In this document: positions 19,529 through 63,767 of the stretch, piece by piece
Layout of the letters: each line of letters starts with the position of its first letter
Numbering within the stretch: position 1 is the first letter of the stretch
Origin: Eledone cirrhosa
Lineage: Eukaryota
Reading direction: 5' to 3'
Assembly (NCBI GenBank): GCA_964016885.1
Contig: OZ024744.1
Span: 26,660,001-26,724,000 of the forward strand
DNA: 64,000 nucleotides
Made by a program: the position numbers and the translations under genes
The notes under the pieces: model-generated
The model's database searches: none
Seen by the model: only the letters and a program-made list of their open reading frames with translations
Told to the model about the DNA's origin: nothing

Positions 19529-22500
19529 TCTTGGTTGTCCATCGTAAACGATGATGACATCTTCTTTATTTTAGTTCCCGTCTGCCGTGGGCACGAAGGT
19601 GGCTATGGAGGCCGATCCATGACTTGCAGGTCCGGAGACAGTGGGCGCAGGGTAAGAGACCGGAGTCGCTTGGGGTAGCTGTTGATGTCCTTTCACGGGC
19701 CTCAATGAGCTCTGCGCGTCTCTTCTCATCAAAAGAGTCTTTGGCGCGTCTGGTAAGGGCGCGCCACTCATTCCTGTCCTGAGCATGGGACTCGAGTTGT
19801 TTTGGGGCGATTCCAGTGTTGTTGATGTTAGACTTCACGCAGTCTTTGAACCTCATGAGAGGCCTGCCCTGCTTTCGTTTCCCCGAACAGAGTTCCCCAT
19901 ACATCAATTGCTTCGGAAGCCTGGGATCGTCCATCCGGATGACAAGTCCCACCCATCGAAGTCGGCTCTTCAGTATCATAGCTTTGATACTGGTTGCCTC
20001 AGCCATGTCAAGAACTTTGAGGTTGGAGACCTTGTCCTGCCATCTGATGTTCATGATTGACCGCAGGCTGCGCATGTGGAACCGTTCCAGCTGCTTCAGG
20101 TGTCTTCTGTACAGGGTCCATGTCTCACATTCGTAGAGGATGCTGGGGAGAACAACGCCTCTGTACACCTTGAGCTTGGTGGACTGCTTGATGTTGTGCT
20201 GGTTCAGGACGCGTGTCATCAGGCGGTCAAGGGCTTGACGGGCCTTGCAGATCCTGGCGTTTATCTCCTTGTCGAGGCTTCCATCGCTGCTGATGACACT
20301 GCCGAGGTACTTGAAGTCGTCCACCGTCTTTAGCTGGGTGCCTCCGATGGAGATGGAAGGAGGGTGGGAGAGGGAGGCAGGTGCAGGATGGAACTGGACC
20401 TCAGTGTGGCCAAGGCTAATTGTGAGACCGAAGAGGCAGGAGGCCTCCGAGAACTTGTTGACGATGACTTGGAGGTCAGACTCCTTGTGGGCCATGTGGG
20501 CACAGTCGTCAGCAAAAAGTGCCTCCAGGACGATCCTCTGCACGGTCCTTGTCTTGGCCGTCAGGCGCCGCATATCAAACAGGGAGCCGTCTAGTCTGTA
20601 TTGCAGATATACTCCGTGCTCGAGATCCCCGACGGCATGATTCCGCACGCAGGTGAAGAACAGGTTGAAGAGGACGGAGCCAGCACGCATCCTTGCTTGA
20701 TTCCGAACGGCTCCGATACCTCTCTGCCCGAGCGTACCTTCCCGGTCATGTCGTCATGGAATTGCCGTATCAGGTTCACGAACTTGGTCGGGCATCCAAG
20801 CTTCGACAGGATCGACCAGAGGGTCTCCCTGTTGACAGTGTCGAAGGCCTTCGTAAAGTCTATGAAGACGGCAAAGTGGTCCATGTTCTGTTCAACACAC
20901 TTCTCCTGCACCTGGCAAACTGAGATCATGTCGATCGTGCTGCGGTTTGGGCGGAACCCACACTGGGCCTCAGGCAGGTTGTCATCGGAGATGTTGGCGA
21001 TGAGGCGGTTGAGCATGACTCGAGCCAGGACCTTCCCAGCGATGGACAGGAGAGAAATGCCCCGATGGTTGCCACAGTCAGTTTTGCTGCCTTTGTTGTT
21101 AAAATGCGAGACAACTGTGGCATCCATGAAGTCTTCTGGCACCTCTTCTTCCTCCAATATGCTGACGAGGAGGGTGTGGAAGGCCCCAGGGTAGCTGCAT
21201 CGACCGACTTGAAGATCTCGGCAGGAATCCCGTCCATCCCAGAGCCCTTTCCTGAGCTGGTCTGGTTGATTGCCTTCGTGACTGCATCCAACGTGGAGGG
21301 GGGGTCGAGGATGCCGACTACGGGTTTCTGTGGGACCTAGTCGAGGGGGCAGGGTCGACAGTGGAGGGCCCGTTGAGCAGGTTGCTGAAGTGCTCTCTAC
21401 ACCTCGAGTTGATGCTGCTCTTCTCCTTCAGCAGGGTCGAGCCGTCAACAGACAGGAGTGGTGACAGGCTTGGAGTGTCCATAGACGTCAAGGATGGTGC
21501 TGAAGAATATCTTCGAGTTCATTGTGTCAGCGTATCTCTCGACTTTTTCAGCCTTCTTTTCCCACCACACGTCCTACATTCTGCGTAGCGCTGCTTGGGT
21601 CTGCCTCTGGAGGTGCTTGAAGGGGTTGTACTTCGAGGTGGAGGATCTGTCATTCTGCCACTCAATGAAAGCCCTCTTCTTCTCGTTCAGGAGTTGTCTG
21701 ATGTGCTCATCATTTTCATCTAACCAGTGCTGGTAGACTTTCTTCCTCGGCCCGATGGTTGCCTTGGCTGACTCTGTCACCAGCGACCTGAATGGGTCCC
21801 ACTGTTGAGTTGGGTGTCGGTCAGTGGTCCATGGGCAGTCAGCCGGCCGTCCAGGTCTTCCGCGAACGCATCACGATGCTCTGGCTGCTTGAGTCGCGCG
21901 ACGTCGAAAGCTGGTCTACAGACTTTCGGAGTCTTGCGATGCGTCGGGGTGTTGTGCAGTGACAGGATGGTCCTGACAAGGCGATGGTCGGTCGAACACT
22001 CTGCACCACGCATGGCAATGGTGATTCTGACGTCACCGATGTCCCTCTTGCGGCATATGGCAAAGTCAATCAGATGTCACTGTTTGGATCTGGGGTTCAT
22101 CCATGTCATCTTGAACTTGTCTGCCTGGCGGAACAGTGTGCTGGTGATGGTGAGGTCGTTCTCGGTGCAGGAACTCAACAGTATGAGGCCGTTAGAGTTC
22201 AGCTTCCCTGTGCCGTGAGGTCCCAGTACGCCTCTCCAGTTGCTGCTGTCAGACCCGACTCTTGCGTTGAAGTCCCCCAGTAGGATGAGTTTATCGCTTG
22301 GGGGACGCCCTTCATGAGTTCCCCGTAGAAAGCGTCCTTTGCTTCATCGCTGCTGATGAGAGTGGGGGCGTACGCGCTGATGACTGTGACATACCGAGAT
22401 GGGTCGAGGGGGAAGCGGAACTTCATCAGCTGCTTACTCACAGGTGTTGGGAGGTCTGGTAGCTACTTGCAGAGTGAAGTCCTGATGGCCAGGCCTACCC

Positions 22501-33113: not shown

Positions 33114-36100
33114 CTACAGAAGTATATTCAGAGTGGTCCCGTTCACTCGGACCATTCTCGCTACATTCACCCACCTTTCAACAAACTTGCTAGAAGGCAG
33201 CACTTGCGTCTCCACCCTGATTTTCCTCTTCAAGTGAAACTTGAAAAAGTTAATTAGGGATTCGCCGAAGAAGAAAGTGTCTGTCTTTAACCCTTTCAAC
33301 CTTGTCCACCACACAATCTCTTTCGCCATGGCCACCAGGCAGATGAAAACCGCCTGCCCTTCCTCCTCGAAAGGAAGACGGCGAGACCATCTGCTCAATG
33401 GACTCAGTCGATAACCGGATCAGTCCTACACGAAACAAATGTTCGACATAGTTCCACAAGTCAGCAATGCTCGGGCACTGAACGAGTGCGTGCACGACGG
33501 TTTCGACACTCTGCGCGCATCTCGGACAGACTCGGCTGACGGCACTTCCGTGCCGCTAGAGCTTATCTCGAACCGGTAACGCTCCACAGTAGCACAGCCA
33601 GGCCAGGGATTTTTGCAAGTTATCCATAGGCCTTGGGCTGAAATTCTTCGGAAGAGAGCAAACAGCTGATCTTCTTCGATGCCCAGGATGTCTCCAAGAA
33701 CGCCGTCGCACTTCCTCTCCACTAGTCCTCTATAGAACGCCAATGTGGTGATCCACCGATACTGGTGCCCAGCTGGCAGAGGGCAGTGAGCACCTGGAGA
33801 CATTCCAGTTTCCAAGCGCTATCCCTCGGTCTTTTCCTGACCCAGGACTGCAGCTCCGTCAAGGAGACGAGCTGTGGGAAAACGTGCCTGGCGAACGGCG
33901 ACCACACCTGTTTACCGTCAAGGAAGCACCAGAGTTTTCGCAGCCTCAGCGCATGTTTGCGCATCATCAGCTATGGCTTGCCCAGTCCTCCACGCAACGG
34001 GTGTTAACAGCAGATAGATCGTCTGACCATGGGAGCGCGTCCCTTCCACAAAAAGCGGAAGAGGAGGCGCTCCATTTTGGTGAGAGTTGTGCCGGGGCAG
34101 AGGACGACGGTGAGGTGGTAGCAGATGACGGATGCGATGTACGCATTCGCCACCTCCACCCGGCCTTTCAGGGACAGCTTCCTCTCGGCCCATTTCTGGG
34201 TGAGGGAGGCCACCTAGCTCCAGTTTGTCTCCATCTGGAAGACCGGTCCGAACCAGACCACAAGCACTTTAACCGGTCCGTCCGTCCAACGCAGCACGAC
34301 GCTATCGGACGGCATGGACTTGCCTCTCCAGGTGCCGAGCTGCAAGCCCACCGACTTTTCCTGGTTTATCTTTGCTCCTGTCACCGCTTCGTATTCCTTG
34401 AGAGCGGTGCCGAGCATCTGGATGTGTCTGGTGTTCGACACCACAACGGTGACGATGTCGGCGAAAGCCGACTCGGATTTCACGCATCCTAGTTCGCGTG
34501 GGACGCACCTCATCGCCCCCAGTTTGTGCAGTAACGGCTCGAGAGCCATTACGTACACGAGGGACGAGAGGGGGCAACCCTGACGGACCGAGCGCCTGAT
34601 GCTGAACGGCTGCGACAGGTGTCCGTTCACCTTCACAACTGAGCATATGTCGCTGTAAATCGCAACGTTACAACCCCTGAAAACGGGCCCGGAACCGGCT
34701 GCCGCGTGGACCGCTGCCAGGTACCAATGGTCGACCCTATCGAATGCTTTGGATTGATCCAAGTTGATCGGGGCCCCACCCGTGCCAGGTTCCTTAACCA
34801 CACTCTCTATGATGTATCGCATCAGGTGGCGGTTGTAGGGATCTGTGTATGTATCTGTCCGGGAGGCGCATATCCCGGCCTCTCCCACCAGACCCTCGAC
34901 GACAAGCGCCAACCTCGTTGCAAATACATTGGCCAAAATCTTGAACTCTGCGTTTAGCAGAGTTATGGACCTGAAATTATTGATAACAACCCCCTTGTTC
35001 GGGTCTTTTCTCAGCAGCGCCACTGCTCCCCAGCTCACAAAACTGGGAATGCTCCCGTTCTGCTGCCAGTTGAAGTAGATGTCTGCCAAGAGGTCACCGA
35101 ACAAGTCTGGCATAAATGCATAAAGCTCGTAGGGCACACCATCCAAACTTGGCGATTTACCCCTCGTACAGTTAGCCACCGCTTTCTGTATTTCACCGGC
35201 TCTTATTGGCTTTTCGCAATACTGTGCTGCGGTCGTCGAGAGCCGAGGCAGTCCGTCGAGGTATGCACTGAAGTTCATACCCGATCCGACCGCCGCCGCT
35301 CCCGAACAGTTCAGCAAACTGCTGCTGAAAAGCCTCACACATCTGCTCAGGTTCGAGCAACACGCACCCGTTTTGGTCAGACAAAGACCGAAATGTGGCT
35401 TTGTTGCCACATCGCGCGTCTGCCACCCGGGCACATTGGACGGCTTTCGTCCCCTCGTGTTTCAGAGCACGCGCTTTAGCTCTGACAACGGAGCCTTCGT
35501 ATTTTGCGTTGAAGAATTGGTCGAGTGCCAATCTCGCCGCAAGTACTTCGGTTGCAATGCCTGTTCTAAACGACTCTTCTAGTTTTCTGTCTAGCTCTCC
35601 CTCTACTCTATTTTCCTCTATCACTAGTCCTTTGCTAAACCTAATCGACTCTACTTTAATTGCCCTTTTCAGGGCAAACCACCAACTGTTGTTGACGACC
35701 GCTCCCGTCAACGCCCGCTTAACTAATACGCTAATCCGGTCTCTGTAGGCTTTGCGCTCCGGGAAAGACGCGTTAAGCTTCCAGTAACCAGGTCCTTGTC
35801 TATGAAGTCTGTCTATGTCGATCTCACAGATCACAAATTTGTGTCTGTGTAGTCGACTATTTTAAATTGTGGACAACCTATACTAGCCTTATCTAGTTCC
35901 CTGCAGAATACCCTATCGAGATACGATCTGGATGACCCGATGCGGTTTGTCCATGTCCACATTGGCACATTCGGGGGATCCAGTCGATACCTGTCAGCCA
36001 GTTCAAAACGTCTGAGCAGGTTGGTGAGGCTCTTGCACCCTCCTCGCCTATCTACTAGCCCCACACAATCCCAGCGTGCATCCAAGATACCGTTCCAGTC

Positions 36101-40726: not shown

Positions 40727-40978
40727 GGTCTAATGATTACATATCGCAAATTCCAGGAAACCCGCGTATAGGAGAAATACAAAAGATAGTACTAATGGGA
40801 ACTGCCCATATACTAAGTAAGATCCTGTCAATATAAGTACATCACAAGTCTAAACACTAAGGATGCATGTGTGAATATGTGTGTTCTTTCTTGAACATGG
40901 CGGACCTTGTTGTCTCTTGAGGTCACTGGTTGTGACTTGGTGATAACTCGTATGAACATAAAGCAAGATAAATGCAAC
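40725..40978 (+). mobile_element. R4/Dong-clade 3' end, family A copy 2, very short
   Basis: Near-identical to 39325-39577. Confidence 0.9.
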
Positions 40979-41002
40979 TATAATAATAATAATAATAATA
41001 AT

Positions 41003-42192
41003 AGGAAAGAAGGAGGACGTGGGTTAATCCAGTTAGACATTGCGTTGAAAACTGCAACAATTGGATTATCTACATATCTAAGGGAATCACATGATTGGAT
41101 GATCAAACTCGTTTTGAAACACGAAAGCATCAAAAGATCATATTCCATTACAAACGATGCACAAAGATACAGTAATGGACTACACATTTCAGAAGTCCCA
41201 TTTACTGCTGAAATGGAAAACACAGAAAAAGCAAAGCAGGTAAAAGTAACTGCAAAGAAAGAACTGCTACAGAAACTAGCTAAGAAATGGCAAGAAAAGC
41301 CTCTGTATGGAAAATACCCAGAGCGAGCTAACAATCCTGATGTTGACAAAACTTTAACCCATCAGTGGTTGGCATCCTCTGGACTGAAATCGGAGACTGA
41401 AGGACTGATTATATCAGCACAAGATCAGTGTCTGCCAACAAAAAATTACCAAGCCAACATAATAACAAATGGATGCAGCCCATTATGCCGTGTATGCAAA
41501 AAACAACAAGAGACCATTGACCATATAATTTCAATGTGCAGTCCTATTGCTCCAACCGAATACCTAAACAGGCATGACAGAGCTGCACAATACATACATT
41601 GGATAATGTGTAAGCATTTTGACCTGCCCCATCAAAAGAATTGGTGGGAGCATCAACCACCTCCCATACTTGAAAAAGATCACATCTCAATCTTGTGGAA
41701 CTTTAGCATCCAAACAGACCGAAAAATAGATGCAAATAGACCTGATATAATATTGAAGGACTTTAAAAAGAGGGTATGCCAGCTAATTGATATGTCTGTT
41801 CCAATAGACAAGAATGTATCTATAAAAACATTTGAAAAATTGAGCAAGTATAAGGACCTGGAGATAGAAATTGGAAAAATGTGGAAATTGAGAACTAAAA
41901 CAATACCAGTGGTTGTAGGCGCTCTGGGAATGATACCTAAGGGGTCTAATGATTACTTATCGCAAATCCCAGGAAACCCGCGTATAGGAGAAATACAAAA
42001 GATAGTACTAATGGGAACTGCCCATATACTAAGGAAGATCCTGTCAATATAAGTACATCACAAGTCTAAACACTAAAGATGCATGTGTGAGTATGTGTTC
42101 TTTCTTGAACATGTCGGACCTTGTTGTCTCATGAGGTCACTGGTTGTGACTTGGTGATAACTCGTATGAACATAAAGCAAGATAAATGCAAC
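41003..42192 (+). mobile_element. R4/Dong-clade 3' end, family A copy 3, longest
   Basis: Open frame RKEGGRGL...WQEKPLYGKY...SETEGLIISAQDQ...RLE domain ending at 42052. Confidence 0.93.
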
Positions 42193-59575: not shown

Positions 59576-59906
59576 ACAGAAACTTAACAGACGCAATGAT
59601 TTCATCCAATAATCTAAAGGTTGGTGTTGGAATGTGAAACGAGATTCCTTTACGATAAAGATTGACATTTGTGAAGTTTAAAACTATATTGGAGGTCTTC
59701 TAAAACCCTTACAAACACCAAAACATTATTCCCAAGTGTTCCTATCTCCCCCCCCCCTTTTTTTTGCGTCATCACCTACTTTCAAAAGGAAAAATTTTCC
59801 ATCGCCCACCAGTGTCGTAAATATTCAAAAGTATACTAAAGATATTTGGTAAAAATGTTTTACTAAATATATTTGGTAAAAGTTTTATTCCCATTTAGCC
59901 TCTTGT

Positions 59907-59947
<41 letters not shown>

Positions 59948-60245
59948 TAATTTAATATATCAACTAACATAGGCGCACAGATGCACGTCCATGCCAGCAA
60001 ATACACAGGTTATGTCATAGTACCTAGGTGGTTCAATGCAGGAGGGTGCAGAACAATAATATAAACTTCTAACTAGCCTCTGTGTCACGTGATTGATTCT
60101 TTAGAATCGGCCATTTGACTAGAAGCAGTGAGAATTTCAGTACATGGAATCCAGTCCTCGCCAGCTGTTCTTTCTACCGAATTATTATTATTTTTATATG
60201 AGCCGCCAGTGTCCGCGCATTGCCTGGAGACTCAGCTGAGAATAG

Positions 60246-60327
60246 ACTCCCTGATGACGCAATGAATTCTCGACAGTTGGATTATGTAACTGTCTTTATC
60301 CCATTGCAGAAACTAATTAGTTGGAGT
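60246..60327 (+). ncRNA. Type I hammerhead ribozyme, intact core
   Basis: ACUCC-CUGAUGA-C-GCAAUG..GACAGUU..AACUGUC..CAUUGC-A-GAAA-CUAAUUAG-UU-GGAGU. Confidence 0.88.
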
Positions 60328-60515
60328 GAAAATTTAAGTAAGTAAGTAAAAGATTTTTTTAAAATTTTTTTAAAAATTATTTTCTTATCTTACGTCTTTT
60401 ATATTATTGTTCTGCACCCTCCTGCATTGAACCATCTAGGTACTATGACATAACCTGTGTATTTGCTGGCATGGACGTGCATCTGTGCGCCTATGTTAGT
60501 TGATATATTAAATTA

Positions 60516-60572
<57 letters not shown>

Positions 60573-60864
60573 ACAAGAGGCTAAATGGGAATAAAATCAC
60601 TGATTTGTCGAGCAAACCTGCCAAAACCACTTCTAAATTTTTTTGGGGGTGTTAGTAGGCGTCAGTCATCTTACCATCCCATTCCTTCTAACTAGCCTCT
60701 GTGTCACGTGATTGATTCTTTAGAATCGGCCATTTGACTAGAAGCAGTGAGAATTTCAGTACATGGAACCCAGTCCTCGCCAGCTGTTCTTTCTACCGAA
60801 TTATTATTATTTTTATATGAGCCGCCAGTGTCCGCGCATTGCCTGGAGACTCAGCTGAGAATAG

Positions 60865-60946
60865 ACTCCCTGATGACGCAATGAATTCTCGACAGTTGGA
60901 TTACGTAACTGTCTTTATCCCATTGCAGAAACTAATTAGTTGGAGT
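60865..60946 (+). ncRNA. Type I hammerhead ribozyme, second tandem copy
   Basis: Identical to 60246-60327 except one loop base. Confidence 0.88.
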
Positions 60947-61012
60947 GAAAATTTAAGTAAGTAAGTAAAAGATTTTTAAAAAATTTTTTTTTAAATATTT
61001 TCTTATCTTACG

Positions 61013-61107
<95 letters not shown>

Positions 61108-61525: not shown

Positions 61526-61586
<61 letters not shown>

Positions 61587-61725
61587 ATGCTTTGGGAGGG
61601 TCATGTTGCCAATAAGAAACACACGCACCATTGCTGTCACTCCAATTTATTATAAATTAAATTTGTAAATTTATAAATTTCCGGTTGGTTGGTTGGTTCC
61701 ACAACCGGACGGTTGTTCATATATT

Positions 61726-61768
61726 GTCAAAGTTCTTTCGTCACACATTCTGTGAACTCTTCAGTGAC
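61726..61768 (-). ncRNA. Type I hammerhead motif with non-palindromic stem III
   Basis: GUCA-CUGAAGA-GUUCACAGAAUGUGUGAC-GAAA-GAAC-UU-UGAC; a decayed relative lies at about 16735-16772 (+). Confidence 0.62.
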
Positions 61769-62236
61769 TGGGGATTCTTTTCTTTGTTTTTGTGCCTCTC
61801 CTTTGTTCTGTCCTACGCCATCTTGTTTTTGTGTGTCAAAGCATAACAATATCGGTTTCAACACATGTTTTTCAGATAACGAATCTTGCTAAACAAATTC
61901 AGAAACGAAATATATATATATATATCACATAAGAAACGGAGAATCAATGTTGCGACAAATAAAATGTATTAGACATATTAAAATCCTTTCTCTGTCGACC
62001 AGATTGATGCACGATCGATGTAATGATCAAACCTGACTCTGAAATCGCAAGGTCCTCAAATACGTCTGGATTCTACGAAGCGGAGTTTCCAAATATATAT
62101 ATGGTAAACATTGAGGACCAAATGAATTAACTGTGGAGATATAAAAGATACAGAAGCGAAAACCAGCCAAACAGTGAGTGTATTCTGTTATTATTTCTGG
62201 CAATATTATTACAACAATATGACCCTCCTCAAGTAT

Positions 62237-62320
<84 letters not shown>

Positions 62321-62483
62321 GAATTAGGATTTAGCTTCATGCATAGCTGTATACAGATATGTATTGGAATTTCGTATTTCTAAAGAAATACGGCATGTTT
62401 ATAGGTAAACATTTAGAAAGCCGTAGCTATGCAAACACCAGGGCTAACGCCCTCTGGTGGTGTCCAGCAGAAGCAAGGGGACA

Positions 62484-62527
62484 ATCGTCGATGCATTTCG
62501 AACTTAAGTGGTTTTCATCAGGACGAT
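62484..62527 (-). ncRNA. Minimal type I hammerhead, intact core
   Basis: AUCGUC-CUGAUGA-AAACCACUUAAGUUC-GAAA-UGCA-UC-GACGAU. Confidence 0.85.
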
Positions 62528-62777
62528 CGCCCCACCCTTGCGACTGCTAGACTTGAAAACATGGGATAATATGTAGTTTTCTCGTCTGTGTAAATGAGAT
62601 GATTAATCTCATTTGCATATGAAGCTACTTAAGTTGGATCAACAGGACGATCCCTCCCACTCTTAAGCCAACTTATGCCGCTTCATATGTACATGAGATT
62701 AATCACCCTATTTACACAGACGAGAAAACTATATATTCTCACCTGTTTTCAAGTCTAGCAGTCGCAAGGGTGTGGGG

Positions 62778-62821
62778 ATCGTCCTGATGAAAACCAGTTA
62801 AGATCGAATTACATCGACGAT
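62778..62821 (+). ncRNA. Decayed hammerhead in the opposite arm
   Basis: AUCGUC-CUGAUGA-...-GAAU-UACA-UC-GACGAU, with A15.1 mutated. Confidence 0.65.
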
Positions 62822-63767
62822 TGTCGCTCTTGCTTCTGTTGGACACGACCAGAGGGCGTTAGCCCAGGTGTTTGCATAGCTGCGGCTTTCTAAATGTTTA
62901 CCTATAAACATACCGTATTTCTTTAGAATTACGAAATTCCAATAGACACATATATATGTAGGTTCTTTGCATATCTCGTTTGAATTTCTTTTTCAACTAG
63001 CCTATATTGAAATACCTTCTTAATATTCTAAATCCTATATCGTACACCGAAATATCCAATCGTTCATCACTATCTATTCAATTGCTCATTACCTACCTAA
63101 CAGTTGAAATTGCCCTCCGGTGGGTGATATCAGCTACGTTGGGAAACCCAGATATAAATGAAGCCCATGGTAAAAGTAAGCGAGACGTTTTACTGCTCAG
63201 GTACGCAGGTTCATTTGTCTCTGAAAATAATCAATCAGTAACCATCAATCCCTTGTGCTGAAGACTATAGCTATGTCGGACACTTTGTAAAAGCCTTAAA
63301 AATGTCAAGGACAAAATTCCTTTTACTGAAATAAATGAAATATTTTTTGTCAAGAAAGACTCTATGAGCAAAGTGTTTCCTGGCGAAGGTTTAACTTTTG
63401 AGGTTTCATCTTGTTTGTTATTGTTGGTTTTTATTGTATTTTAATTTGATTTGTTGTTTTAAACATTATTAATCTTTAAAACAGGACGTAATTAATGCTT
63501 GCTGAATTCCCTAGACATTAATCTGTTGAACTATTATTTTTCGTGTTAGAGCAGGGTCAGAGTGCAGAGAAACATCTTGGAGAAAAAAGGTGGAAGGGAG
63601 GGGTGCAAATATATATGTATATATGTATGGCTGGATGGATGGATAAATGTATATACGGTCTCATAACGGCATTTCTTGGGTATTTTAAGCCTGGCCTGAG
63701 AACAGTATATTTCTTCCAGAGAAAGATAGAAAGTGAAAGATAGAGGAAATGAGAAAGAAGAAGAATT

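Follow-up and report, generated by a model that had tools for sequence, protein, structure and literature searches.

The locus studied here, in a 64,000-nt stretch of the Eledone cirrhosa genome (hereafter the window), is probably a single head-to-head insertion into (TA)n of a high-copy hammerhead repeat of 555-556 nt, likely made on a circular template by a Neptune-type enzyme. The family to which it belongs is likely a new one among the non-LTR retrozymes, i.e. a non-autonomous Penelope-like element (PLE), and it is of ordinary size. The initial annotation of this DNA had proposed a non-autonomous retrozyme that is bounded by hammerheads, has moved recently and depends on Penelope-like machinery, a view that is well supported by the copies, scars and units described below. 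Its further proposal, that the monomer measures 619 nt and contains its own (TA)n tract, gives way to a family unit of 555-556 nt, the (TA)n tracts being target DNA. Nor is the monomer unusually long, as had been thought: published retrozyme consensus sequences run from 51 to 972 bp (10.64898/2026.07.22.740005), a range in which neither 619 nor 556 is unusual.

The two near-identical direct repeats recognized at the outset lie at 60066-60404 and 60685-61022, with a spacing of 619 bp and about 98% identity, and the CUGAUGA cores within them place both GUU cuts where they had been predicted (Table 1). The inverted copy seen to their left corresponds to the arms 59883-60065 and 60398-60596 and represents the family's normal Penelope-type head-to-head structure. 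A 16-nt link occupies the site of the window's (TA)26 and 27 nt in 72 of the 73 distinct copies examined, and among 40 scored matches the captured 27 nt, which reproduce the left flank in reverse complement, are confined to this locus. Hence, the 619-nt spacing is evidently a local, one-off product of integration and not the family monomer, and no daughter copy of the 619-nt unit appeared among the same number of scored matches. The window locus is otherwise an ordinary family copy with a local rearrangement. To judge from the junctions, its most economical reading is likely a template switch to the left flank. The last 3 nt of the captured 27-mer are a microhomology (AAA) with monomer positions 466-468; the right-arm cDNA, on arriving at monomer 466, would have jumped to the left flank through these 3 nt and copied 27 bp along with (TA)n before being re-primed at site 2, yielding the unique 619-nt spacing.

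Table 1. Features of the insertion locus, in window coordinates (strand. where none applies)
Feature	Position	Strand
Host flank, unique, adjoining the target; the captured inverted 27-mer derives from it	59883..59909	+
(TA)18 target microsatellite, left insertion end	59910..59945	.
Left inverted arm, monomer ~333-452; 3' end at TATAT site 2; bears the 118-nt tail	59946..60065	-
Middle arm, covering monomer 1-452, with its end at site 2	60066..60517	+
Type I hammerhead 1; core at 60251, predicted cut after 60322	60246..60327	+
(TA)26, locus-specific; takes the place of part of the family's 16-nt link	60518..60569	.
Inverted copy of host flank 59883-59909	60570..60596	-
Right arm, passing from monomer 466-556 into 1-339; TATAT site 1 at its 3' end	60594..61022	+
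Type I hammerhead 2; core at 60870, predicted cut after 60941	60865..60946	+
(TA)44 target microsatellite, right insertion end	61018..61105	.

Other repeats surround this insertion. A second, unrelated small hammerhead element (61582-61915, core at 61764, minus strand) also has head-to-head arms into (TA)n and occurs at many other loci, and the end of one of its relatives, at 61990-62240, continues into (TA)n. The segment 61107-61517 is a short high-depth repeat flanked by TA tracts, with ends resembling those that we take to be typical of a non-autonomous Helitron. An imperfect, MITE-like palindrome of about 600 bp lies at 62350-62956, and retroelement fragments with reverse-transcriptase and zf-RVT domains are found at 20594-21427, 34217-35461 and 40895-42049.

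Genome-wide, a 21-nt half of the hammerhead occurs in 9,320 exact copies across the superfamily (0 for the control), and the repeat numbers thousands of copies; a 23-mer from the 3' end occurs in 4,754 exact copies, and the window's own variant of it in 136. A first look at the species' own 3.0-Gb genome had returned 2,356 repeat candidates, the best being 97-99% identical among the 40 scored. Units measured from cut to cut are 478-623 nt long with a mode at 555-556, and fall into subfamilies that are about 68-91% alike (124 distinct units). The monomer is non-coding, with a longest ORF of 31-36 aa and a GC content of 0.35-0.38; the early remark that no meaningful ORF is present holds equally for the 619-nt circle, in which the longest ATG ORF is of 36 aa. 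Each tandem unit bears one type I hammerhead, the copies are dispersed and recently amplified, and 5'-truncated arms are found where an LTR organization would have LTRs. Array sizes range from dimers up to about 54-mers. The ~54-unit, ~30-kb satellite (G000:C3:255003940-255034270) retains the original head-to-head insertion ends and is a mosaic with periodic variants shared among its units; these signs of later expansion rule it out as a single reverse transcription product, and it appears to have grown from one insertion by such expansion.

The insertion scars were studied in 105 non-redundant stretches, 53 of them drawn from the first 100 matches of the 3'-end 23-mer and 52 from other match sets; ends were counted in those 157 of 177 arms that are at least 84% identical. 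The 3' ends concentrate at two TATAT sites 118 nt apart, with 78 arms ending at site 1 (monomer 335-339), 70 at site 2 (monomer 453-457) and 9 elsewhere, and at least four TA repeats follow 145 of the 148 site-1 and site-2 ends. These stretches contain 60 head-to-head pairs, of which 9 are unclassifiable. All the remaining 51 combine one site-1 with one site-2 end and none has the same site twice (binomial p 4e-16), two of the 51 deriving from one duplicated locus. In every one of these pairs we find the Penelope-like hallmark of an inverted 5'-truncated copy with a tail at one end. The hallmarks described for PLEs include inverted truncated copies, a tail of 30-40 bp at one end and a bias to microsatellites (PMC8557442), and work on such elements places the tail between two internal start sites of reverse transcription, with both strands extended by a protein predicted to be a dimer (PMC11167929). 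The arms extend through as many as 4 or more whole monomers without coding sequence. Since 121 of the 148 arms run across one cut site or more, and 52 of them across at least two, the template should have been either a circle or an uncut multimer.

Units were compared within and between insertions. With regions of A/T runs masked, they diverge by 0.63% within an arm, by 0.74% between arms and by 4.75% between insertions. Among rare variants in the 40 insertions with at least three units, 135 are singletons, 11 are fixed in all units and 5 are intermediate; the fixed variants are spread over 8 insertions, and seven of these variants are present on both arms and one in 8/8 units. Uniformity was seen in 713 of the 732 checks made at polymorphic sites of dispersed insertions. 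In only 14 of 43 cases, however, did units of one insertion resemble each other more closely than the nearest other insertion, so that much of this uniformity is explained by subfamily structure. The pattern fits both arms having been copied from one monomer template, likely a circle; the alternatives are gene conversion and a source array that was itself uniform.

The 5' ends of the arms are also unevenly distributed. Monomer positions 258-280, just beyond the predicted cut at 257/258, hold 20 of them against 7.8 expected (p 2e-4; the interval was partly chosen after inspection of the data, and the excess is spread over 258-300), positions 230-257 hold 8 against 8.8, without enrichment, and positions 255-260 hold 4 against 1.9, which is not significant. 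At one insertion (L182) both arms end at 257/258, as expected from a cut linear monomer. Stalling of the reverse transcriptase at the folded ribozyme is a possible other cause of the excess; AT-richness alone was rejected as its cause, as the 95%-AT bins 301-320 and 441-460 show low rates.

It is conceivable, if unlikely, that the same non-autonomous Penelope-type element is copied from uncleaved read-through multimers, the hammerhead being weak or only occasionally active and the circle unneeded. Insertion in vitro is reported to be unaffected by hammerhead mutants, the main substrate of the Anolis PLE being uncleaved RNA (PMC11167929), and no in vitro cleavage was seen for eight of nine dimers of frog retrozymes (10.64898/2026.07.22.740005). 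Furthermore, the ~54-unit array could supply multimer transcripts, the hammerhead core is atypical in that stem II has C.A at its base and the site is GUU, and the monomer fold is disfavoured. However, rare variants that every unit shares on both arms call for gene conversion or a bottleneck of one monomer, the dispersed insertions are uniform whereas the large array is a mosaic, and the core and stems are kept across units of about 68-90% identity.

The predicted ribozyme has a 5-bp stem I (ACUCC/GGAGU), a CUGAUGA core, GAAA and the GUU cut site. The two-part stem II proposed in the initial annotation is borne out and consists of 6 bp continued through an internal loop into a 7-bp hairpin. 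Stem III, a short palindrome, owes part of its invariance to our search patterns. The hammerheads had also been called intact. This is right to the extent that the core (CUGANGA/GAAA/UH) and stems I-III are present in the family motifs, but it overlooks a mismatch at the base of stem II and the shortness of stem III: in the 77 distinct motifs the stem II base is a 1x1 loop (C.A in 70, A.A in 6 and U.A in 1), stem II lacks the canonical closing pair that would immediately follow A9 and precede G12, and a stable stem III is likewise lacking. A search of Rfam gave no hammerhead match at E<=1, and fold prediction assigns the active fold of the monomer a probability of about 1e-4. Covariation in the hammerhead points to a conserved fold, with 90.4% of cells paired, none of 500 shuffles reaching the score and all slid controls beaten; one pair of stem II occurs in four Watson-Crick forms (A-U, U-A, C-G and G-C). 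The set consisted of 24 diverse hammerheads hand-picked from 55 distinct ones, and their relatedness can inflate the score. In the predicted fold of the whole unit, 11 of 97 pairs show compensatory changes, including some in a long-range helix (16 units), and the predicted 556-nt circle folds at a z of -3.4 (25 shuffles). Six of 10 predicted family circles, but not the 619-nt circle, are dominated by a decoy pairing that would block stem I, which we treat as a lead only. Hammerheads located beside coding elements in this genome have similar 1x1 loops and NUU sites, and others have core changes of the U3/A8 type. A search for hammerheads with a short stem II returned 35 matches, and those listed look like deletion derivatives; among 30 such loci one adjoins a separate PLE, and no coding element there shares the monomer. 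Another tandem hammerhead family (L102:5900-7000) has a 459-nt unit, a two-part stem II and U.U at the stem II base, and a motif just after site 1 is common to it and the retrozyme monomer.

No ORF with reverse transcriptase (RT) and GIY-YIG domains lies within the retrozyme, and the enzyme would have to be provided by another element. The genome contains 10,596 GIY-YIG candidates and several RT and GIY-YIG families with a CxxxxCxxC linker; the domains were identified by search, and the CX2-5CxxC linker before the C-terminal GIY-YIG by eye. These candidate enzymes are Neptune-type by motif, with Nematis also compatible. The coding RT and GIY-YIG elements end at two TA sites with tails of 38-66 nt, and their head-to-head pairs are mixed in 5/5 cases in one set and 9/9 in another (14/14 together). 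One such family, N4, has 8,438 exact 3' ends, an overlapping upstream ORF and a full open frame of 784 aa in 26 of 150 matches. This young two-ORF family, whose 4.7-kb unit stands in tandem at L325 (G000:C5:17087500-17097400), carries only a degenerate hammerhead-like motif, and no common sequence was found between N4 and the retrozyme monomer. Single arms at two loci (L181 and L261) join an N4 3' end directly, a weak hint of partnership given the 8,438 N4 ends. The second of these loci is a compound of three families, starting with an inverted arm that belongs to the second small element and passing through the N4 3' end to the retrozyme, and TA is absent between the latter two. In our partner search, 150 of the 10,596 GIY-YIG candidates were scored and 50 stretches read, with no coding element found to contain monomer sequence; a coding PLE sharing the repeat (pLTR homology) was not found among the roughly six coding families sampled. 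Likewise, in 100 loci and the 105 stretches no ORF continues the monomer, and 9 protein matches belong to separate neighbouring elements. The partner is narrowed to a type (Neptune-type) and not to a family.

The identity of the scar with that of coding elements, and a sample of only about six coding families from the GIY-YIG candidates, might suggest that the repeats are truncated pseudo-LTR ends of a coding PLE not yet found, which is very improbable in view of arms that traverse up to 4 or more whole monomers without coding sequence and the 0/105 stretches with a continuing ORF. We can scarcely credit the idea that faulty assembly around (TA)n produced the 619-nt arrangement. The junction is unique and no contig spans the locus, the contigs of four sequencing runs containing the family without crossing it (an independent one matches 59600-59898 with zero differences), but the copies of the duplicated parts are not identical (TA18 against TA26, a single substitution in the inverted arms, and two substitutions plus poly-A/T variation in the direct repeats) and the outer ends follow the family's rule, with site 2 on the left arm and site 1 on the right.

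Returning to the circle-based reading, we envisage that tandem copies would be transcribed and cut by their hammerheads, most likely acting as dimers or aided by a protein, and that the monomer would be ligated into a circle. A GIY-YIG nuclease would break the (TA)n target, and both DNA ends could then prime reverse transcription on the same RNA at the two UAUAU sites, one end per site. The RT would roll round the circle for 0.1 to more than 4 units, and the two cDNAs would be joined head-to-head with little overlap. More tentatively, and with somewhat less than even confidence, we suggest a specific form of this scheme, in which a dimeric Neptune enzyme primes both (TA)n ends at two fixed sites, one for each end, on one hammerhead-made circle and rolls round it, the decoy pairing is conserved and silences the ribozyme in the circle, and the core with the stem II mismatch is an active, undescribed variant. 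The insertions would in that case amount to a record, on the scale of the genome, of retrozyme movement.

Mobilization of animal retrozymes by PLEs via RNA circles is proposed, in the literature consulted, from co-occurrence and pLTR similarity and not from insertion products (PMC7229834, 10.64898/2026.07.22.740005). Here, the full Penelope scar is borne by a purely non-coding family in a genome that also has an intact Neptune-type family of recent amplification, and the value of the non-coding family lies in the genomic evidence for how retrozymes move. The strict priming rule, with one of each site, sharply constrains the PLE mechanism, which is poorly understood, and a 556-nt RNA with a 784-aa enzyme offers a compact system for tests of circle versus multimer templates. 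Our literature searches found no earlier description of the family or of the insertion-scar statistics, the latter being the part not found in print; Repbase, Dfam and supplements may list such families or hammerhead variants.

The first of these papers defines non-LTR retrozymes and proposes PLEs as their mobilizers (PMC7229834), and the second reports their co-occurrence, lengths of 51-972 bp, cleavage in 1/9 dimers and, for part of the frog retrozyme families, homology to the pLTR of coding PLEs (10.64898/2026.07.22.740005). The present family resembles the elements described there in its non-coding tandem units, each bearing a single type I hammerhead, and in having low GC (38%), arrays from dimers to ~54-mers, thousands of copies, a structured predicted circle and coexisting PLEs. 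In contrast, its 556-nt unit exceeds the 170-400 nt of PMC7229834 while falling within the wider range of the later paper, pLTR homology to a coding PLE is lacking among the six or so families sampled, and head-to-head arms, (TA)n targeting and the tail are not returned by term searches of the two papers. The hammerheads of PLEs are described as having an extra 5' nucleotide, a long helix II and a palindromic helix III, with low in vitro activity and action as dimers (PMC4209133); those found here differ in a second extra nucleotide (A) before G12, the GUU site and the two-part stem II. In insertion structure the family resembles Neptune-clade and other EN+ PLEs and the non-autonomous Chlamys elements (PMC8557442, PMC11167929), with which it has in common partial tandems, the inverted 5'-truncated copy, the one-end tail, microsatellite targets ((TA)n as in Neptune and Naiad) and two internal RT start sites. 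It departs from them in the absence of an ORF and in a tail of 118 nt versus 30-40. Unlike in the Anolis element (PMC11167929), both start sites match the target TATAT, and each insertion makes strict use of one of each site.
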